From the NCBI GenBank assembly GCA_018651725.1, contig JABIDK010000006.1, forward strand, positions 48,482 through 112,481: a stretch of 64,000 nt of DNA, written 5' to 3'. The first letter of the stretch is position 1. Each line of letters starts with the position of its first letter. The position numbers were made by a program, and so were the translations under genes. The notes beneath the pieces are model-generated. The model saw only the letters and a program-made list of their open reading frames with translations. It was not told the origin of the DNA and searched no databases. Positions 2,745-43,751 of the stretch are shown here, one piece after another. The DNA is from Candidatus Falkowbacteria bacterium. Its GTDB lineage: Bacteria; Patescibacteriota; Patescibacteriia; JAACEG01.

Positions 2745-2896
2745 ACATTTGAAATTAATAATTTAAAAACATTATTTTAAGTATACTTGTATTTTTAATT
2801 TTGTCAATGGTATGCATGGTGTCTATTGCGGTATGGACTGTATTTTACAAACCTGAAAATAGATTGTACTATGGATAATAGTTATTAGTATTTTTT

Positions 2897-5815
2897 ATGG
2901 AGAATTTAATGGAAAAATTGAATAAGGAGCAACTAGAGGCGGTTACCTATAAAAAAGGGCCACTTTTGATTATTGCCGGGGCAGGGACAGGAAAAACTAC
3001 TGTTATTACCCAAAAGATTGCTTGGCTTATTGAGCAGGGACTTTGTCAAACACAAGAGATTTTAGCTTTGACTTTTACGGAAAAGGCGGCTGAGGAAATG
3101 GAAGAGCGAGTAGATCGATTGCTCCCAATGGGATATCTTGATCTGTGGATCTCAACTTTTCATTCTTTTTGCGAGCGAATTTTACGACAGGAAGGACTGG
3201 AGATCGGTCTTTCAACGGATTTTGAGCTTATAAATACATCAGGGCAGTGGAGCTTAGTTAAGAAAAATTTAGATAAATTTAACTTAGATTATTATAAACC
3301 GCTTGGCAATCCAACGAAATTTATTCATGCAATGTTAACTCATTTTTCCAGAGCCAAAGATGAAAATATAAGTCCTAAAGAATATTTAAAATATGCAGAA
3401 AATATAAAATTAGATTTAGATGGATCTGACGATCAAGAGGTTTTGAAAATAAATGAAGTGGCAGAGGCTTATCGTGTTTATCAGCAGTTGCTTTTGGAAA
3501 ATAATTATCTAGATTTTGGAGATTTGATAAACTATACTTTAAAACTTTTTCAAAAACGACCGCAGATTTTAAAAAAATATCAAAATCAGTTTAAGTATAT
3601 TTTAGTTGATGAATTTCAAGACACTAACTGGGCGCAATATGAACTTATAAAAATATTAGCAGCACCTAGAAATAATTTAACGGTTGTTGGCGACGATGAC
3701 CAGGCAATTTTTAGATTCCGTGGCGCCTCTATGAGTAATATCTTGCAGTTCAAAAAAGATTATCAGGATAGCAAAAATATAGTGCTTGTAAATAACTATC
3801 GAACTAAACAAGAAATTTTGGATAAGGCTTATGATTTTATTAAACTTAACAATCCTAATCGGTTAGAGGTTCAGTTGTCTCAGGATAAATTGGATAAAAA
3901 ATTAATTTCTCATAATGACGGGGAGGCTGTGGTAGAGAATATTGAAGCTGAAAGTTTGGAGGAAGAAGTGGGAAAAGTTGTTAAGAAAATTATTGAAATA
4001 AAAAATAAAGAAAGCAATTTAAGCTGGAATGATTTTGCAATTTTAATTAGAGCTAATCAAATGGCCAGTAATTTTATTCCTGTTTTGGAGCGAGCCAATA
4101 TTCCGTATATTTTCTTGGCCTCTCGCGGTCTTTACGCTAAGCCGGTAATAATGAATATAATCGCTTATTTAAAGTTGCTGGATAACTATCATGAATCAAA
4201 AGCAGTTTATAGGATTTTGAATTTGCCTGTTTTTAAATTTAATCAACAAGAAATCAGTAACATTAACTATTGGGCAAAGCGGAAAACTTTATCGCTTTAT
4301 GAGACTTTGAAAGAAGCGTCAAAGTTTGGCCTGGAGAAAGAAACACTTCAGAAAATAAATAAAGTCTTGAGCTTAATAGAACGACACACAGTTTTAACAA
4401 AAGAAAGAGGAATTGCAGAAATTATTTTGTTATTTTTAGAGGACAGCGGATACTTAAAATATTTAACCGAGCAAGATGAGCAAAAAGTAAGAGAGGACAT
4501 GAATTATTTAAATCAGTTTTATAGAAAGGTTAAAGAATTTGAACAAACAAATGATGACCGAAGCGTGAATTTATTTTTAGAAGAATTAAATATGGAGATA
4601 GACTCCGGGGAGCAGGGAACGCTTACTCCGGACTATGAATCCGGTCCGGAAGCAATAAAAATTTTAACTGTTCATGGAGCCAAAGGACTGGAGTTTGAAT
4701 ATGTTTTTGTGGTTAACTTGGTTGACAAACGGTTTCCAACGATTGAGAGAAGAGATCCGATTTTATTACCAGATGATTTGATAAAAGAAATTTTACCTGA
4801 GGGTGATGTTCATTTAGAGGAAGAAAGAAGACTTTTTTACGTAGCCATGACACGGGCAAAAAAAGGATTGTTTTTCAGTTGGGGAAAAGATTACGGTGGA
4901 ATGAGAAAAAAGAAACCATCTCGATTTTTGATTGAGTTGGATCTGATAAATAATGAAATTGGTTCTCAGTCGAAGAATGACCAGCTTCAGGCTGCAAAGA
5001 TTGAAAAAAGAGAAGACCAAAACAAAAAGCAAGAGTATCCTTTGCCAAAACATTTTTCCTTTTCTCAGTTAGCTGCTTACGATACTTGTCCGAAACAATA
5101 TTACTATAACTTTATTTTAAAAGTCCCTGTTCATGGTAAAGCGCAATTTAGTTTTGGGCGCGCTATGCATAAGACGTTTGAAAGAATGATGGAGACTATA
5201 ATTAGCAGATCAAAAGAAGAGCAAACAGATTTATTTTCTAAAGGTAAGACAGAAAGAAAAAAGCTCGGTGAAATTATTGAGCTAAAGGAAATTATAGAGA
5301 TTTATAAAGCCTCTTGGGTAGACGATTGGTTTGAAGATAAAAAATCTAAAGAAGATTATTTTAAAAAAGGCAGAGAAATTTTACGTGAATTTTACGAAAA
5401 ATATAAAGAAGAAATTCTGTCTCCACTTTATTTGGAAAAAGGATTTAAATTTAAGGTATCAGCTGACTATAGCTTCAAGGGCGTGATCGATAGAATCGAC
5501 GAAGTGGACGGAGGAATAAAAATCATTGACTATAAAACTGGTTCGCCAAAAGAAAAATTAAGTTTAAAAGATAAAAAGCAACTATTAATCTATCAACTAG
5601 CCGGAGCAGATATTTTTGAAAAGCCAATAAAATCTTTAAGTTTTTATTATTTAGACAATAACAGCGAAGTAGAATTCCTAGGAACAGAAAAAGAACTGGA
5701 AAAAGTAGAAAAAAGCATTACTGAAACAATAGAAAAAATTAATTCAGGTTGCTTTGAAGCCAGCCCCGGCAGACTTTGTGATTATTGTGATTTTAAAGAA
5801 ATTTGCGAAAAATAA
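2897..5815 (+). CDS. UvrD/PcrA-family DNA helicase with C-terminal PD-(D/E)XK (RecB/Cas4-like) nuclease domain
   Basis: Walker A 'AGAGTGKTT' and 'DEFQDT' (helicase motif II) are present. The C-terminus has 'IDRID...IIDYKTG' (PD-(D/E)XK) followed by a cysteine cluster 'CDYCDFKEIC'. Confidence 0.8.
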   Translation: MENLMEKLNKEQLEAVTYKKGPLLIIAGAGTGKTTVITQKIAWLIEQGLCQTQEILALTFTEKAAEEMEERVDRLLPMGYLDLWISTFHSFCERILRQEGLEIGLSTDFELINTSGQWSLVKKNLDKFNLDYYKPLGNPTKFIHAMLTHFSRAKDENISPKEYLKYAENIKLDLDGSDDQEVLKINEVAEAYRVYQQLLLENNYLDFGDLINYTLKLFQKRPQILKKYQNQFKYILVDEFQDTNWAQYELIKILAAPRNNLTVVGDDDQAIFRFRGASMSNILQFKKDYQDSKNIVLVNNYRTKQEILDKAYDFIKLNNPNRLEVQLSQDKLDKKLISHNDGEAVVENIEAESLEEEVGKVVKKIIEIKNKESNLSWNDFAILIRANQMASNFIPVLERANIPYIFLASRGLYAKPVIMNIIAYLKLLDNYHESKAVYRILNLPVFKFNQQEISNINYWAKRKTLSLYETLKEASKFGLEKETLQKINKVLSLIERHTVLTKERGIAEIILLFLEDSGYLKYLTEQDEQKVREDMNYLNQFYRKVKEFEQTNDDRSVNLFLEELNMEIDSGEQGTLTPDYESGPEAIKILTVHGAKGLEFEYVFVVNLVDKRFPTIERRDPILLPDDLIKEILPEGDVHLEEERRLFYVAMTRAKKGLFFSWGKDYGGMRKKKPSRFLIELDLINNEIGSQSKNDQLQAAKIEKREDQNKKQEYPLPKHFSFSQLAAYDTCPKQYYYNFILKVPVHGKAQFSFGRAMHKTFERMMETIISRSKEEQTDLFSKGKTERKKLGEIIELKEIIEIYKASWVDDWFEDKKSKEDYFKKGREILREFYEKYKEEILSPLYLEKGFKFKVSADYSFKGVIDRIDEVDGGIKIIDYKTGSPKEKLSLKDKKQLLIYQLAGADIFEKPIKSLSFYYLDNNSEVEFLGTEKELEKVEKSITETIEKINSGCFEASPGRLCDYCDFKEICEK

Positions 5816-9864: not shown

Positions 9865-11619
9865 ATGTTAAAAATGAAAAAACGTTATTTAATTGTTGTT
9901 TTATTTATTTTTTCTTTTAGTCTGGCTAACTTCGGTCTGGCCACTTATTCGGATCCTGTAGCGGAGACTAACGACAACCCGGTAACTTCTATTACTTTAA
10001 GCGGTGAGGGGGCAAATATCAGTTGGAGTACGCAAGGATATTCCTCTAAAGGATTTAAAGTTGCTTGGTCAAAAAATTCAGGTCCAACTTACCCAACCAG
10101 ATCAGGTGATAAATACCACTATCACTCAAGTCCAGGTAAATCAAGCGACACTTTAACTCCGTTTTCCGGTGATGGGACTTATTATGTTAAAGTTTGTGAG
10201 TATCTGGGCGGAAAATGTGGAAAGTATAGTAATGAAATAATGGTTAAATTAGGAAAGGAAGAAAATGAGTGGGTAAAACCTGACTCTCCTGAAGTACTTT
10301 TAGAAATAATTTTAAGCGGTGAAGGAAATAAGATTAATTGGACAGCTGATGGATATGTTATTAAAGGCTTTAAAGTTATTTGGTCAAAGAAAGAGCACCC
10401 AACTTATCCAACCAGACCAGGAGACAAATATCATTATTTTTCTAATCCAAACAAAAATGAAGATATTTTGACATCATTTTCCGGTAATGGAGTTTATTAT
10501 GTTAGAGTTTGTGAATATTTGGGAGGTAAATGTGGAAGGTACAGTAATGAAATTAAAATGCAGCTAGACGATGACAATAATTTAGAGTGTACAATGGAAT
10601 ATAATCCTGTTTGTAGTATTGACGGTAAGACTTATTCTAATAAATGCATGCTAAAAAAGAGCGGGGATGGCTTTAAATATTATGGTAGATGTAAAGATGA
10701 GCTTAATACCCTTAAGTTATATAGTTACGCTAACTGGATGTGCGCTAACGGGGAAATAGAAAAACACGAAGAAGAATCATCTTGTAAATCAGAAGAAACT
10801 TGGAAAAAATATGCTAAAGAATTTTGCGGTGATAGCGCTGTTGATTATTTTGCAGTAACCAAGGAATGTGTTCAGGATAATGATGTGATTGAGATGAAAA
10901 ATAAAGCTAAAGATATTACCGATGACAGATTTGATAAAATTTTAGAAGAATTAAAAGAGCTTAGAAATTTAGTTAAAGAACAACAGATAAAAATTGAGTT
11001 TTTAACTAGATTAAAAGATAATTTAGAGACGATTACAAGTAAAGTAGAAAGCATGCTTGGTGATTTTATTACTTACGGGGTTGACGAAAATACAAAGAAA
11101 ATAGGGGAAAGAGAAAGAGCCGCAGTTTTGTTTTCTTATAAAGGTGCGTTTAAAAAATTGCCTGAAAATGAAGATGAGATGGCTGATGTTATAAAAATTG
11201 CCAATGGACGTTGGCCAAATAAAAGAAATCAAGACGCTGAAAACGAAGCGGAAAGTCATTTTCAGAAGATATATAAAAAAGTCCCGGATATGAAAGATTC
11301 TAGTGATAATGCGGCTATTACGGTAATGGCTTATGGTTTGCGTCAAAAAGCAGAAAATAGGAATTTAGATTCAGAGCGTCAAGGAATTAAAATATTTATG
11401 GATATTTATGGCTATCATCCAGATTCTACTGAAGACTGGAATGTTATGCAGGCTATAACTTATTCCGGATCAAAAAGAGGGATTGATACCGACAAAGATT
11501 TATTAATTGACGAGCGTGAGGTAGAGCTTGGCACTGATCCAAATAATCCGGACACCGACGGAGATGGTCATTTAGACGGAGTGGAAGTGGCAAATGGATT
11601 TGACCCCTTAAACAAATAG
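9865..11619 (+). CDS. Secreted protein with two tandem ~95-aa repeats, a Kazal-type domain and C-terminal Asp-rich (TSP3-like) repeats
   Basis: There is a signal peptide. Repeats 'ITLSGEGANISW...YYVKVCEYLGGKCGKYSNEI' and 'IILSGEGNKINW...YYVRVCEYLGGKCGRYSNEI' are present. 'CTMEYNPVCSIDGKTYSNKC...C' matches the Kazal pattern (compare ovomucoid 'LEYRPLCGSDNKTYGNKC'). 'DPNNPDTDGDGHLDGVEV' occurs at the end. Confidence 0.6.
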   Translation: MLKMKKRYLIVVLFIFSFSLANFGLATYSDPVAETNDNPVTSITLSGEGANISWSTQGYSSKGFKVAWSKNSGPTYPTRSGDKYHYHSSPGKSSDTLTPFSGDGTYYVKVCEYLGGKCGKYSNEIMVKLGKEENEWVKPDSPEVLLEIILSGEGNKINWTADGYVIKGFKVIWSKKEHPTYPTRPGDKYHYFSNPNKNEDILTSFSGNGVYYVRVCEYLGGKCGRYSNEIKMQLDDDNNLECTMEYNPVCSIDGKTYSNKCMLKKSGDGFKYYGRCKDELNTLKLYSYANWMCANGEIEKHEEESSCKSEETWKKYAKEFCGDSAVDYFAVTKECVQDNDVIEMKNKAKDITDDRFDKILEELKELRNLVKEQQIKIEFLTRLKDNLETITSKVESMLGDFITYGVDENTKKIGERERAAVLFSYKGAFKKLPENEDEMADVIKIANGRWPNKRNQDAENEAESHFQKIYKKVPDMKDSSDNAAITVMAYGLRQKAENRNLDSERQGIKIFMDIYGYHPDSTEDWNVMQAITYSGSKRGIDTDKDLLIDEREVELGTDPNNPDTDGDGHLDGVEVANGFDPLNK

Positions 11620-13687: not shown

Positions 13688-14269
13688 ATGAAGATAATTG
13701 AGATAAGAAAAAATAGTGAAGAAAAAGATCTCTCACAAAAAAGAATAATGGATATATTTTCTTTTTCTGGAAACTGGATATTTTTTAGTTTAATTTACAC
13801 CATATTTTTTGTTTTTTTTATTGTAAATGCTAATCAAGTAATGGCTATTGAATATCCAGGACGTACAATATGTAAGCTTTATGGTGGCGACTTAGGTGAT
13901 CAAAATATTTGCCACTTAGAGACAAGAGAAAAATGTGATCCTTCTGATAAAGGATTTGAAATTGAAAATGAATTTATTGCTCCTTGTAAAAATTATGCTG
14001 AAATGCCTTGTGCTAAACTCGGAGAAACCCGTACTTTTAATAAGTGCTGTGATGACCTTAAGTGTTCTTATAGAAAAGGATACTTCACAGAAAGTTGTAA
14101 ACATAATTTTCCAATTGGAATACATTTATCAGCTTGTATAAAATGTGGAGACAATATATGCGATGAAAAATATGAATCTAAATGCAATTGCCCACAAGAT
14201 TGTGAAATAACTGTATTTGAAAAGATAATTAATTGGTTTAAAATTTTTTTAATCTATTTTAACGGGTAA
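13688..14269 (+). CDS. Cys-rich secreted/membrane-anchored protein, unknown function
   Basis: Signal-anchor 'IFFSLIYTIFFVFFIVNANQVMA'. The mature part has ~20 Cys. The true start may be an internal Met. Confidence 0.4.
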   Translation: MKIIEIRKNSEEKDLSQKRIMDIFSFSGNWIFFSLIYTIFFVFFIVNANQVMAIEYPGRTICKLYGGDLGDQNICHLETREKCDPSDKGFEIENEFIAPCKNYAEMPCAKLGETRTFNKCCDDLKCSYRKGYFTESCKHNFPIGIHLSACIKCGDNICDEKYESKCNCPQDCEITVFEKIINWFKIFLIYFNG

Positions 14270-14275
14270 AATTTT

Positions 14276-15007
14276 ATGAAGAAATATTATTTTCTTTTTT
14301 TGTTTTCAATAATATTATTAAGTGGTTGTACAAAACAAGATAATTTACATCAACAAAACAAAGGGGGTGCTAACCCAAAAAGCGCACTAGAAGTGTTGTT
14401 TGATATGGGTGAATGCGATAAAATAAAAGCACCTAATATAAAAAATGATTGTTATATTAAACAAGCTATAGCAAAAAAAGATGTGCAAATATGTGAAAAA
14501 ATAAATAATAAATTTAGTCCTAATAAAAGTGAATGTTATGAGGATTTAGCTATAAGTGAGAATAATATCGATATTTGCAATAAAATCACTGACAGTGATT
14601 TAACAAAATTAAAATGTAGAGTATCAATAAATAAAGATATTAAGCTATGTGATGAGTCAGAAGGTTTTAAAAATTCTTGTTTGATTAAATTGGCTATGGC
14701 GACTAAAGATATATCAATTTGTAAACAAATTAATCATAAGCCTAGATATTCTCTATGTTTGTCGTCAGTGGCAGAGTCAGCAAAAAGCAAAGATTTTTGT
14801 GATATTATTGATGATTTGCACATGAAGGAATTATGTTTTATAAGAGTGGCGATAGAAACAAAAAATCCAAAAATGTGCAATGAAATATCTTTCGAAGAAA
14901 ATAAACAAATATGTTTTTTTGGCTTAGCGATAGAAACGTTTGATATAGATTTGTGTGATGATTCTGGTATAAAAAAAAGATGTAAAGATATTATTAACAA
15001 TAAATAA
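14276..15007 (+). CDS. Lipoprotein with seven tandem ~18-aa Cys-bracketed repeats
   Basis: Lipobox 'LLSGC'. Repeats of form C-x4-(A/L)(I/M)(A/E)-x4-7-(I/L/F)C-x2-I, e.g. 'CYIKQAIAKKDVQICEKI', 'CLIKLAMATKDISICKQI', 'CFIRVAIETKNPKMCNEI'. Confidence 0.55.
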   Translation: MKKYYFLFLFSIILLSGCTKQDNLHQQNKGGANPKSALEVLFDMGECDKIKAPNIKNDCYIKQAIAKKDVQICEKINNKFSPNKSECYEDLAISENNIDICNKITDSDLTKLKCRVSINKDIKLCDESEGFKNSCLIKLAMATKDISICKQINHKPRYSLCLSSVAESAKSKDFCDIIDDLHMKELCFIRVAIETKNPKMCNEISFEENKQICFFGLAIETFDIDLCDDSGIKKRCKDIINNK

Positions 15008-15012
15008 ATTAT

Positions 15013-15264
15013 ATGACAAAAATAATTTCTATATTTTTTATATTATTAGTGTTTACCGGCTGTAGTAGCAAGTTTACTAATAGCAACAAAAATTATTCAT
15101 CGAATTCTGATCAATTTTTATGCACAAAAGATTCTGATTGTGTAGATTGTTGTAACGGTCAATGTGTTAATTATGAGTGGTGGAAGAAAAACGGGTCAAA
15201 AATAGAATGTAAATGTAAAACATCAACGTGTGTTTGTATTAATAATGAATGCGCTAATAAATAA
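15013..15264 (+). CDS. Small Cys-rich lipoprotein
   Basis: Lipobox 'VFTGC'. 12 Cys in ~60 mature residues ('CTKDSDCVDCCNGQCVNYEWW...'). Confidence 0.45.
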   Translation: MTKIISIFFILLVFTGCSSKFTNSNKNYSSNSDQFLCTKDSDCVDCCNGQCVNYEWWKKNGSKIECKCKTSTCVCINNECANK

Positions 15265-15335: not shown

Positions 15336-15407
15336 CGCGGGGTAGAGCAGTGGCAGCTCGTCGGGCCCATAACCCGAAGGTCGTAGGTTCGAATCCTACC
15401 CCCGCAA
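15336..15407 (+). tRNA. tRNA-fMet (initiator), anticodon CAU
   Basis: Folded by hand. Acceptor 'cgcgggg'/'ccccgca' has a C1xA72 mismatch. U8 is present. D-arm is 'gagc-agtggca-gctc'. Anticodon stem 'tcggg/cccga' has three G:C pairs. Loop 'cccataa' gives CAU at 15368-15370. T-arm is 'gtagg-ttcgaat-cctac'. Discriminator is A. CCA is not encoded. Confidence 0.8.
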
Positions 15408-15408
15408 C

Positions 15409-15681
15409 ATGGATACAAATAAACCTTACGAAGTTTATATTATAAAGAGTGAATGTGGTAAATTATACACTGGAATGAGCGAAAATGCTGATATTAGGCT
15501 TAAAAATCATAACGCAGGTATATCAAAATGGACAAGTAAGTATCAAAATTGGAGAATGGTTTATAAAGAGAGTTTTCCTAACTATAGTGAAGCCAGAAAA
15601 AGAGAAATTTATTTGAAGAAACAGAAGGGTGGTAACGGATTGAAAAAAATAATAGAAGGTGGCAGCTCGTCGGGCCCATAA
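15409..15681 (+). CDS. GIY-YIG nuclease-family small protein (YhbQ/YazA/UPF0213-like)
   Basis: 'PYEVYIIKSECGKLYTGMSENADIRLKNHNAG...WRMVYKESFPNYSEARKREIYLKK' carries the GIY...YTG motif. The conserved Arg/His/Glu spacing matches standalone ~90-aa GIY-YIG proteins. The last 8 codons and stop lie inside the partial tRNA repeat. Confidence 0.75.
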   Translation: MDTNKPYEVYIIKSECGKLYTGMSENADIRLKNHNAGISKWTSKYQNWRMVYKESFPNYSEARKREIYLKKQKGGNGLKKIIEGGSSSGP

Positions 15682-15726
15682 TCCCGCCGCGGCGGGATCG
15701 TAGGTTCGAATCCTACCCCCGCAACA
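15653..15726 (+). repeat. Partial direct repeat of tRNA-fMet (D-arm to 3' end), diverged in anticodon-stem/variable region
   Basis: 'tagaaggtggcagctcgtcgggcccataa' and 'tcgtaggttcgaatcctacccccgcaaca' match the tRNA at 15343-15409. A palindromic 'tcccgccgcggcggga' replaces 'cccgaagg'. The 5' acceptor strand is missing. Confidence 0.7.
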
Positions 15727-15734
15727 GTTAAAAC

Positions 15735-15768
15735 AAAAAAACGCTTTGAATAGCGTTTTTTTGTTTTT
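15735..15768 (+). terminator. Rho-independent terminator
   Basis: Stem 'aaaaaacgct' pairs with 'agcgtttttt' around loop 'ttgaat'. A T-run follows. Confidence 0.6.
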
Positions 15769-17084: not shown

Positions 17085-17564
17085 ATGAAAGAAGTACAAA
17101 AAATGTTTTCTGTTTTAATAGCACAGATTATTGAAATTATTGTAATTTTATTATCTATTACGGTAATTATAATTTATATATTTTTTCAAGAGGTATTTTT
17201 CTCCTTGCTAAAAAGTGCCGGAGGACTTGCACCGATATTTTTTGCTGGAGCCTTGTATCTTCTTATTACCACAAAAAGAATTAAAAAAGCTAAAAAGGAC
17301 ATAGAAAAGAACGGGAGTCCAAGACTTAAAGAGTATTATTGTATTTACGTATCTAAGCAAGATGAAATGAAAAACGACGCTTTAGCTTTTTTAACTGCTC
17401 TAGTTGTGGTCGTAATCGCTAAAGAAATGAGCGGGGATTTTAATTATTCTGATATTTGGCAAGCTGGCGCTGCATTCTTAGCGGTATATTTAACAAAAAA
17501 AATATATTTTAAAAAGCAGTTTTCTTTTTTTGGAAAAAATAAGGAGGAGGGCTTGGGTCAATAA
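17085..17564 (+). CDS. Membrane protein, unknown function
   Basis: Hydrophobic segments only. No motif recognised. Confidence 0.35.
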   Translation: MKEVQKMFSVLIAQIIEIIVILLSITVIIIYIFFQEVFFSLLKSAGGLAPIFFAGALYLLITTKRIKKAKKDIEKNGSPRLKEYYCIYVSKQDEMKNDALAFLTALVVVVIAKEMSGDFNYSDIWQAGAAFLAVYLTKKIYFKKQFSFFGKNKEEGLGQ

Positions 17565-17623
17565 AACAAAAAACAAAAAATAAAAACCATTAATCATTAA
17601 TCATCAAGTATTTGGAGAGGGAA

Positions 17624-17821
17624 ATGAAGTTATCTTTAGTGGCTTCCAGAAATGGAAGCGAAAGAAGTTGTGTAGGGGAGAAGTGTACCTTAAATTATAA
17701 AACTTGCCCTGTTGAGGATATAATATGTGTGTGGTGCGCTTATGATGGAGCTAGTATAAAACAAGAGAAAAATAAAGGTGAAAAAATTGCCTATTGTAAT
17801 TATTTTGGAATAGCTCAGTAG
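17624..17821 (+). CDS. Small Cys-containing protein, unknown function
   Basis: ATG at 17624 is preceded by 'ggagagg' (SD). The ORF track calls a TTG at 17612. 6 Cys in 65 aa. Confidence 0.3.
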   Translation: MKLSLVASRNGSERSCVGEKCTLNYKTCPVEDIICVWCAYDGASIKQEKNKGEKIAYCNYFGIAQ

Positions 17822-42567: not shown

Positions 42568-43164
42568 ATGAAATTAAAATATACAACAATTACATTAATC
42601 ATTTTAGTAGTAGGTATTTTTTTTATATATAAACAGCAAAATGATAACTCCCTCTACTCTACTCTTAAAAAAGAAGGTTTTAATTTGGAGTTGATTAATG
42701 ATTTTCAGATAAATAAAGATAACTTAAAAGAAAATCCTTATAAAAGCAGAATTATTTTAGCCAAAAACGATAATCTGCCAGCTGGCGGAGAAACAATTAA
42801 ATTAAAATTGCTTTATGATATGAATCAAGAGAAAGCTGAGGAATATATCGACGACCAAAAAGTTATTTTAACCAGTCTTTACGAGCCTATTCCACCGCCC
42901 TACCCTGAATTTATCGGCCAAGAAGTTAGTTGCGATGAAAAATATAAGCCAATTTTAAAAGAACATGAACTAGGAGAATATTATTTGCTTTACGCAGGAG
43001 AGCGATTTGGCTATGGAATTTGCGAGGAAGAAATGGTAAAGCATAAATCTCTTTTGGGATATTTTTATTGCGATAATAAATTAATTAAATTAGAATATTT
43101 TATAGATAAAAATCAAAATTTTGATTTAGTGGAAAAAATAATTAAAGATTTAAAGTGCATATGA
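42568..43164 (+). CDS. Membrane-anchored protein, paralog 1 of a three-member tandem family (unknown function)
   Basis: It shares the motifs 'YPYPEF', 'EC.EEYKP..KEH.LGEY.LLYA.E.FGYG.CEE' and 'LGYFYC.N...IEYF' with the next two ORFs. Confidence 0.5.
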   Translation: MKLKYTTITLIILVVGIFFIYKQQNDNSLYSTLKKEGFNLELINDFQINKDNLKENPYKSRIILAKNDNLPAGGETIKLKLLYDMNQEKAEEYIDDQKVILTSLYEPIPPPYPEFIGQEVSCDEKYKPILKEHELGEYYLLYAGERFGYGICEEEMVKHKSLLGYFYCDNKLIKLEYFIDKNQNFDLVEKIIKDLKCI

Positions 43165-43751
43165 TAAAAAAAATAATTTTAATTTTAATAATATTTGGTG
43201 GAGTAAGTTTTGGGGTTTGGAAATATAAAGAAAACCAAAGTAAATTTTTAGCCTACCATCTTAAAAGTATTGGTATAAAAATAGAACAAGCTGAAGATTT
43301 TTTAGTTACAGAAATAAGCGATCCCAAAAAAGGGAGCAAAGCAAGAACTATAACAGCCAAGAAAGATCAAGAAGAAATAAAAATAAAAATTGTAAATAAT
43401 GTTGAAAAAGACGAAGCCTTAAACTATATCGAAGATAAAAAAGAAAATTTTGAGAGTCTGTATAAATTAGCTAAAAACCCCTACCCTGAAGCAATGAAAA
43501 AACAAAAAGAATGCCCGGAAGAGTATAGGCCCGAAGTTAAAAAACACGGATACGGAGAATATTTTCTAACATATGCCGGAGAAGACTTAGGCTACGGTAT
43601 TTGCAAAGAAGATCTAGTCAGATATAAGGCAGTACTTGGATATTTTTACTGTGAAAATATAAGTTCTTTTATAAAGATTGAGTATTTTACATCAAAAGAA
43701 AAAAATCACGAAGAAATGAATTCATTAATAAACTCTTTTAGATGCGAATAA
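43155..43751 (+). CDS. Membrane-anchored protein, paralog 2
   Basis: Same conserved blocks ('NPYPEA...ECPEEYRPEVKKHGYGEYFLTYAGEDLGYGICKED...LGYFYCEN...IEYF'). Its start overlaps the stop of paralog 1. Confidence 0.5.
   Translation: MHMIKKIILILIIFGGVSFGVWKYKENQSKFLAYHLKSIGIKIEQAEDFLVTEISDPKKGSKARTITAKKDQEEIKIKIVNNVEKDEALNYIEDKKENFESLYKLAKNPYPEAMKKQKECPEEYRPEVKKHGYGEYFLTYAGEDLGYGICKEDLVRYKAVLGYFYCENISSFIKIEYFTSKEKNHEEMNSLINSFRCE

Follow-up and report, generated by a model that had tools for sequence, protein, structure and literature searches.

The question raised by this locus is what three consecutive genes that encode small proteins rich in cysteine contribute to a bacterium of the candidate phyla radiation (CPR), and whether they are cargo of an accessory island at the tRNA gene beside them, as an earlier note on this DNA had supposed. 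The genes, here called p1, p2 and p3, lie in 64,000 nt of contig JABIDK010000006.1 (the window, meaning the whole stretch that was analysed), which belongs to a metagenome-assembled genome of an uncultured Candidatus Falkowbacteria (CPR/Patescibacteria). The balance of the evidence tips, though not heavily, towards p1-p3 being co-transcribed, exported and membrane-tethered Cys-rich surface proteins that form a disulfide-stabilised binding assembly. Judging from their relatives, they are built of modules that ultra-small bacteria and archaea have in common on their surface proteins.

The repetitiveness of p2 is far beyond chance. The spacing of its Cys residues alternates between about 12 and about 14, and the 16 Cys of the array, from C47 (a C1) to C236 (a C2), make up eight C1/C2 pairs; each unit comprises the two Cys, a short helix and a long helix. 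Repeat detection confirmed the array, six units matching the family profile described below with E values of 3e-7 to 6e-3 and the seventh weakly, over part of the profile. The earlier note had counted seven repeats of about 18 amino acids (aa). The count stands for the full units, to which a short terminal unit must be added, but the length has to be revised: the period is 24-28 aa in p2 and 26 aa across the family. The shorter estimate arose because the motif from which it was taken, C-x4-AIA-x6-IC-x2-I, is a conserved core that crosses the unit boundary, lying between C2 of a unit and C1 of the one that follows it. An AlphaFold2 model of p2 was all-helical, with short and long helices alternating, one pair per repeat, and with a predicted local distance difference test score (pLDDT) of 80-92 over the repeats, which bears out the solenoid that had been proposed. 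The model has the antiparallel helix-hairpin fold of solenoids of the Sel1-like repeat and tetratricopeptide repeat (TPR) type, and the mature part of p2 is predicted to be an alpha-helical solenoid of eight helix-hairpin units. The N-terminal region of p2 is basic and leads through a hydrophobic core to a lipobox (IILLSGC18), which a tether of about 27 residues separates from the array.

An exhaustive HMMER search (phmmer) with p2 against 1.84 billion cluster representatives (clusters of 50% identity) yielded 2,643 relatives within a threshold of E ≤ 1e-3, of which 550 also passed E ≤ 1e-10, mostly with several matched stretches each. The family emerged only with this search: a word-indexed search returned p2 alone, and a profile search started from a messy alignment of 60 proteins gave eight matches and little taxonomy. 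When a repeat profile was iterated on the 150 top-scoring relatives, it recognised 1,648 units in them, with a median of eight per protein. The consensus of the unit is [IL]C[ED]KIxDxxx[KR]DxCYxx[VI]AxxxKD, with both Cys 100% conserved and a modal period of 26 aa (353 of the spacings measured). Since 142 of the 150 best relatives possess a lipobox or a hydrophobic N-terminus, the family is extracytoplasmic. Members with a named source came from Woesearchaeota, Micrarchaeota, Altiarchaeota and 'bacterium HR35'. Six gene neighbourhoods of family members were compared; three were archaeal (FKBP26, RFC, thermosome/RIO1), two were bacterial (one with an F-type ATP synthase operon, the other with Ddl, MurA, MreB and the delta' subunit of DNA polymerase III) and one was uninformative. 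No Pfam-A or NCBIfam model was found for p2, for 60 of its relatives or for an idealised repeat array; matches of the idealised array to bCoV_S1_RBD and OrgC were rejected as artefacts, in which six identical short matches had been summed. Neither the sequence of p2 nor the repeat profile detected a significant PDB chain. By homology, p2 is a member of a large exported family of DPANN archaea and CPR-like bacteria that has no curated model or solved structure.

The connection between p3 and p2 is provided by a single protein. Among the sequences gathered in this analysis p3 had one strong match, the 403-aa protein P0005 (phmmer E = 4.8e-16; 47% identity by BLASTP, residues 24-89), which is itself a member of the p2 family. 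Its lipoprotein signal leads into a p3-like domain, then an acidic linker that contains bacterial TSP3 repeats, and finally a p2-like array. This array matched the entire mature p2 at 33% identity, both end caps included: the N-terminal caps read ANIAVFFEAGDCEKIK against SALEVLFDMGECDKIK, and the C-terminal ends CLDIINNR against CKDIINNK. Because P0005 is p3-like at its N-terminus and matches mature p2 from end to end in the remainder, it is a natural p3-p2 fusion, with a domain order that is the reverse of the gene order at our locus. p3 has its own lipobox (LLVFTGC17), again preceded by a basic N-terminal region and a hydrophobic core. It contains 11 Cys, not the 12 first reported; one is the lipobox Cys, so that mature p3 has 10. 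In P0005, F and Y stand in place of C46 and C68, and their joint replacement suggests that they may be an extra disulfide pair in p3. No metagenome contig came up in a pattern scan for p3 and no PDB sequence matched it; its AlphaFold2 model, predicted from p3 plus P0005, reached a pLDDT of 45.

A second fusion joins modules of the p1 and p2 types. A 573-aa open reading frame (ORF) of the metagenome locus L082 has five p2-type repeats directly adjoining a p1-type module. This ORF (positions 2854-4575 of metagenome contig Ga0074195_1008303) encodes a secreted protein in which the repeats and the p1-type module are followed by a proline-rich spacer, further Cys-rich segments and the tail LLQTILDFFKRIWG.

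The C-terminal module of p1 is widespread. It was found in 62 metagenome loci by a degenerate-pattern scan of metagenome contigs seeded on its conserved C-terminal motifs. The module is about 65-75 residues long and follows the pattern C..EG..CCxGL..C..CxxCG[ND]GxC..E..CNCPQDC. All ten invariant columns of a 31-sequence alignment are Cys in p1, which the module profile recognised with E = 1.4e-18. Its carriers range from 58 to more than 3,000 aa, contain one or several copies, often at the extreme C-terminus, and overwhelmingly start with a signal peptide, a lipobox or a transmembrane segment. No Pfam match was obtained with the 31 modules and no PDB match was found; literature searches produced a description neither of this 10-Cys module nor of the p2 repeat.

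For the other half of p1 a degenerate DUF333 is the most likely identity, as far as alignments allow. The module carriers L036, L039 and L047 begin with a bona fide Pfam DUF333 domain, and p1 and its nearest relative, P0152 (51% identity, 14 of the 15 p1 Cys conserved, the single relative found by an index search), align with such carriers collinearly from the signal peptide onward. The BLASTP alignments are those of p1 with an ORF of L036, where DUF333 occupies residues 21-64 (E = 6e-13), and of P0152 with an ORF of L047 (E = 2e-11), the score coming mostly from the downstream module. DUF333 (PF03891) is a small Cys-containing domain of exported bacterial proteins. It shares with p1 and P0152 an IPNP start (so in P0152; IEYPG in p1) and the motifs C-x3-GG and [IV]C-x5-6-C, and a DUF333 or DUF333-like domain followed by the 10-Cys module is an architecture common to p1, P0152, L036, L039, L046 and L047. 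On the other hand, p1 and P0152 lack the conserved W/Y residues of the domain, the Pfam model matches neither p1 (at E ≤ 1) nor P0152 (at E ≤ 0.1), and a profile-profile comparison (hhalign) of the N-terminal halves alone was weak (P = 0.0019, probability 14%). The N-terminus of p1 aligns with, but is longer than, the classical signal peptide of P0152, MKKIIFITTIIFCFNTVPALA, and may stay on the protein as a signal anchor or be cleaved as a signal peptide. P0152 has a tail, NIWAKFIAWLKNFFT, similar to the amphipathic one of p1, and so does the L082 protein at its end; such a tail could act as an interfacial membrane anchor, and in the three proteins it is possibly a common C-terminal anchoring signal. 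Population variants of p1 from other assemblies (P0153-P0156) were 98-99% identical; P0154 differs by a shorter C-terminal tail (ending KITKFF), a hint that the amphipathic tail is subject to microdiversity or has a frameshift. The earlier note could name no family for any of the three proteins. Pfam and NCBIfam scans likewise gave no meaningful family for them, but orphans they are not, given at least 2,643 clusters for the p2 family, 62 loci for the p1 module and the DUF333-like half of p1. p2 and p3 each carry a lipobox and p1 starts with a hydrophobic stretch, in agreement with the secretion and anchoring that had been suggested for all three.

At the locus itself (Table 1) the three genes are real, consecutive ORFs on the + strand with intergenic gaps of 6 and 5 nt, and HOD96_02180, HOD96_02185 and HOD96_02190 are adjacent in this order in two NCBI assemblies. 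The position given for them by the earlier note, as three Cys-rich ORFs upstream of tRNA-fMet, holds: 71 nt separate the end of p3 from a tRNA-Met(CAT) whose C1:A72 mismatch is a hallmark of initiator tRNA. The Cys content is 7.8% in p1, 7.0% in p2 and 13.3% in p3. Among the window's 68 ORFs with 80 aa or more these are the three highest values, and the median of ORFs of at least 150 aa is 0.6%. Because the gaps are so short and the sole terminator-like site lies 3' of the trio, after a tRNA remnant, at 15730-15767, the arrangement is operon-like and the three genes are probably co-transcribed. They share their orientation and tight packing with the flanking housekeeping genes.

Table 1. Features of the p1-p2-p3 locus (positions in the window)
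Feature	Position	Strand	Extent and Cys	Remarks
p1 coding sequence	13688..14269	+	193 aa, 15 Cys	HOD96_02180, hypothetical protein; exact match in protein collection
p1 N-terminus	13688..13846	+	aa 1-53	Charged stretch, then 25-residue hydrophobic segment ending VMA
p1 degenerate DUF333-like domain (most likely)	13847..13987	+	aa 54-100, 4 Cys	Collinear BLASTP with DUF333 ORFs
p1 unnamed module	14009..14203	+	aa 108-172, 10 invariant Cys	62 metagenome loci; 31-sequence alignment
p1 C-terminal amphipathic tail	14204..14266	+		W/F/K-rich, ITVFEKIINWFKIFLIYFNG; like tails in P0152 and L082
p2 coding sequence	14276..15007	+	243 aa, 17 Cys	HOD96_02185, hypothetical protein; exact match in protein collection
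p2 lipoprotein signal peptide	14276..14329	+		Lipobox L-L-S-G-C18, from sequence; Pfam LPAM_1 E = 0.0086, under cut-off
p2 linker, predicted disordered	14330..14410	+	aa 19-45	pLDDT <50 at residues 7-41
p2 repeat array	14411..15004	+	aa 46-243	7 full units (24-28 aa) and one short terminal unit
p3 coding sequence	15013..15264	+	83 aa, 11 Cys	HOD96_02190, hypothetical protein; exact match in protein collection
p3 lipoprotein signal peptide	15013..15063	+		Lipobox V-F-T-G-C17, from sequence; Pfam LPAM_1 E = 0.012, under cut-off
p3 Cys-rich domain	15121..15258	+	aa 37-82, 10 Cys	Eight Cys common to the N-terminal domain of P0005
Initiator tRNA-Met(CAT)	15336..15408	+		ARAGORN; Rfam tRNA, 64 bits, 1:72 mismatch; downstream boundary, outside the protein system

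How might these proteins work? Export through the Sec pathway and lipidation would be followed by oxidation of the Cys pairs outside the cytoplasm. In p2, a C1-C2 bond in each unit would staple the hairpin. The oxidised trio would present rigid, protease-resistant extracytoplasmic domains, with the p2 solenoid as a binding scaffold and the p3 domain, perhaps also p1, acting beside it on the membrane surface. p1, p2 and p3 may thus associate physically and have a role in binding or adhesion. The likely target would be a partner protein, a host-cell surface or a polymer, consistent with the attached lifestyle of CPR bacteria. Pairing of C1 with C2 inside each p2 unit is suggested by the way in which the arrays of the family begin and end. 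The first array Cys was at C1 in 38 of 53 arrays (the printed exceptions were mostly lipobox Cys or units split by insertions) and the last was at C2 in 45 of 56. In other words, arrays consist mostly of whole C1-C2 units, which fits self-contained hairpins paired within the unit. Loss of Cys in units too diverged for the profile was uninformative about pairing, as both Cys are almost never lost (114 of 115 such units keep both).

The closest analogue in mechanism may be HcpB and HcpC of Helicobacter and human COA7, in which alpha/alpha repeats of the Sel1-like, TPR-like solenoid are bridged by disulfides, with the Cys pair inside the hairpin (PMC8892353). Such solenoids in general serve to bind proteins or ligands (PMC8892353). 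p2, for which the disulfides are deduced, matched no PDB chain in sequence even by repeat profile, and Foldseek with the p2 model gave generic alpha-solenoid matches only (TM-score ≤ 0.33). Sel1-like repeats are about 36 aa long and TPRs 34 aa. The 26-aa period of p2, in which a short helix is paired with a long one, is unlike either, and neither Sel1 (PF08238) nor a TPR model of Pfam matched p2, its 60 relatives or the idealised array; on period and models, p2 does not appear to be a Sel1-like repeat or TPR protein. A likeness of another sort exists with the Cys-rich extracellular proteins of CPR Peribacteria, which have signal peptides, about 7% Cys and clustered genes, and for which roles in attachment or rigidity were proposed (Anantharaman et al. 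2016, PMC4736985). Their mean length is 1,655 aa, and a weak likeness to Cys-rich repeats of Myxococcus was noted (PMC4736985). Compared by description only, the trio resembles them in type of organism, Cys level, export and clustering, but its members are small (83-243 aa).

The main rival explanation is that p1-p3 are metal-binding proteins, whose Cys would stay reduced and coordinate Zn, Fe, Cu, Ni or Fe-S, so that they would be extracellular stores, sensors or redox-active surfaces. CPR and DPANN organisms are mostly anaerobes and their habitats are largely anoxic, and no thiol-disulfide oxidoreductase motif was seen in the 64-kb window. Both facts would suit metal binding and weigh against the disulfide-stabilised assembly, and the latter must also answer several further points. 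We infer the disulfides of the trio and their connectivity; the search with p3 covered the sequences gathered in this analysis; the p3-p2 and p1-p2 fusions are known from one example each; no recurrent neighbour hinted at a function across the six p2-family neighbourhoods; and the gene cluster is not conserved, the closest p1 relative (locus L001) and the P0005 fusion (locus L096) having no p1-, p2- or p3-type neighbours. Because the closest relatives lack the three-gene arrangement, the link among p1, p2 and p3 rests on domain co-occurrence and not on synteny. Metal binding could further appeal to the absolute conservation of two Cys per p2 unit, and small Cys-rich 'dark' domains of archaea have often been interpreted as metal binders (PMC13607799). 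However, a p2 unit offers two ligands only, His is rare in the repeats (0.7%), and the Cys lie within helices, flanked by hydrophobic residues that are conserved ([IL]C, C[YFL]). AlphaFold needs no ligand to fold the array with confidence, and arrays mostly composed of whole C1-C2 units are what self-contained pairs would be expected to leave. Moreover, the proteins follow the lipoprotein/Sec route, where paired Cys usually mean disulfides, and CPR bacteria commonly encode an MdbA-like oxidoreductase together with VKOR (bioRxiv 10.1101/335083). We consider metal binding distinctly unlikely. Very improbable, in our opinion, is a secreted antimicrobial or toxin-like system in which p3, perhaps with the p1 module, would be a knottin- or bacteriocin-type effector and p2 its carrier or immunity protein. 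In mature p3 the six foremost Cys follow the spacing C-x5-C-x2-CC-x3-C-x14-C, which we take to be near the inhibitor-cystine-knot consensus, p3 has a weak Pfam match to a YxzE-like putative bacteriocin (E = 0.0046, 18 bits against a cut-off of 40 bits), and the profile of the p1 module shows a weak likeness to part of a spider knottin, its CCxGL segment (E = 0.9). These resemblances of pattern come without a significant match in sequence or structure: all the matches are below significance, that to YxzE lies mainly over the signal peptide (residues 4-48), and with a pLDDT of 45 the structure prediction of p3 is uninformative about the knottin-like character that the earlier note saw in it. Unlike knottins, p3 has 10 Cys and a lipid anchor; it would not be released, and its counterpart in P0005 is covalently tethered to a solenoid.

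As stated above, the earlier note placed the trio in an accessory island together with the adjacent tRNA, GIY-YIG gene and repeats. In such a scenario the trio would be the horizontally acquired cargo of a mobile element integrated at tRNA-fMet and would encode strain-specific effectors. The trio does adjoin a tRNA, and next to it is a GIY-YIG gene with tRNA-derived direct repeats on either side. These repeats, however, are two copies of tRNA positions 15-74 (15350-15409 and 15659-15726) and enclose about 310 bp with the 90-aa GIY-YIG nuclease ORF only, leaving the trio outside them, 5' of the tRNA. It looks as if a GIY-YIG unit of about 310 bp has inserted in the tRNA gene and brought along a replacement for the 3' part of the tRNA. 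The GIY-YIG ORF (15409-15681) begins with the base that follows the initiator tRNA and ends inside the second tRNA copy, which has a variable arm that is 8 nt longer and GC-rich and is followed by the hairpin at 15730-15767. The suggested comparison of composition with the surrounding genes gave a divided answer: the G+C content of the trio is slightly low (26-28% against 32 ± 4%), as would suit an island, but its codon usage fits the window better than that of the average gene (z of +1.5 to +1.9). The genes therefore look native, the low G+C content reflecting a stronger use of the AT-ending codons of the genome itself. No integrase, transposase or recombinase family was matched among the neighbours scanned, tblastn searches of phage genomes with p1 and p2 found no match, and the co-orientation and tight packing with housekeeping genes also speak against an island. 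The distribution of the trio is patchy. In a synteny comparison anchored on PfkB across 185,579 species genomes the nearest PfkB was 47% identical and had no common neighbours and no trio, no p1, p2 or p3 homologue was found in 15 Patescibacteria-type loci (L002-L016) with a flanking PfkB, and the closest relatives of the trio lie in different neighbourhoods; absence from the compared genomes means little, because they are too distant (≤47% identity). The occurrence of the p2 family in both archaea and bacteria implies lateral transfer at some time. Taken together, an origin of the trio as island cargo is unsupported and seems unlikely.

Two kb upstream of the trio, at 9865-11619, the window encodes a secreted protein of 584 aa. 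It contains a pair of internal repeats, each about 110 aa long, as well as a Kazal protease-inhibitor domain (E = 4e-9), and at its C-terminus it has bacterial TSP3 repeats. Modules of the Kazal and TSP3 types are also fused to DUF333 and p1 modules (in L047 and L036) and to P0005. These common partners suggest that the stretch from 9.8 to 15.3 kb encodes surface proteins drawn from one pool of modules. Downstream, at 17612-17821, lies a candidate ORF of 69 aa with 7 Cys, a TTG start and no signal peptide, just 3' of a membrane protein gene (17085-17564). The adjacent, overlapping ORFs at 42568-43164 and 43155-43751, each of 198 aa with 4 Cys, look like a tandem duplication. The cumulative GC skew peaks at about 18 kb and has its minimum at about 31 kb, at switches of gene orientation, and a putative FtsQ/Mur-like cell-division cluster (labels read from translations) lies on the minus strand between them; the extremes probably reflect a gene-strand effect rather than a replication origin or terminus.

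What, then, does the locus tell us? Its value lies in annotation and structure, not in concept, and no evidence of a new biochemical mechanism has emerged as yet. A bolder proposal would be that the p2 hairpin is a new class of cross-linked alpha-solenoid exchanged between CPR bacteria and DPANN archaea and that, with the p3 and p1 modules, it belongs to a shared toolkit for host attachment; we regard this as rather unlikely, and offer it tentatively. CPR bacteria and DPANN archaea need cell contact, and their surface molecules are almost wholly unannotated. The locus is a compact entry to at least two large families of modules without a curated name or structure, the 26-aa Cys-pair repeat and the 10-Cys CNCPQDC module. 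Because they are small, p2 and p3 are practical targets for expression, disulfide mapping and binding screens. Naming and solving both modules would annotate thousands of hypothetical exported proteins.

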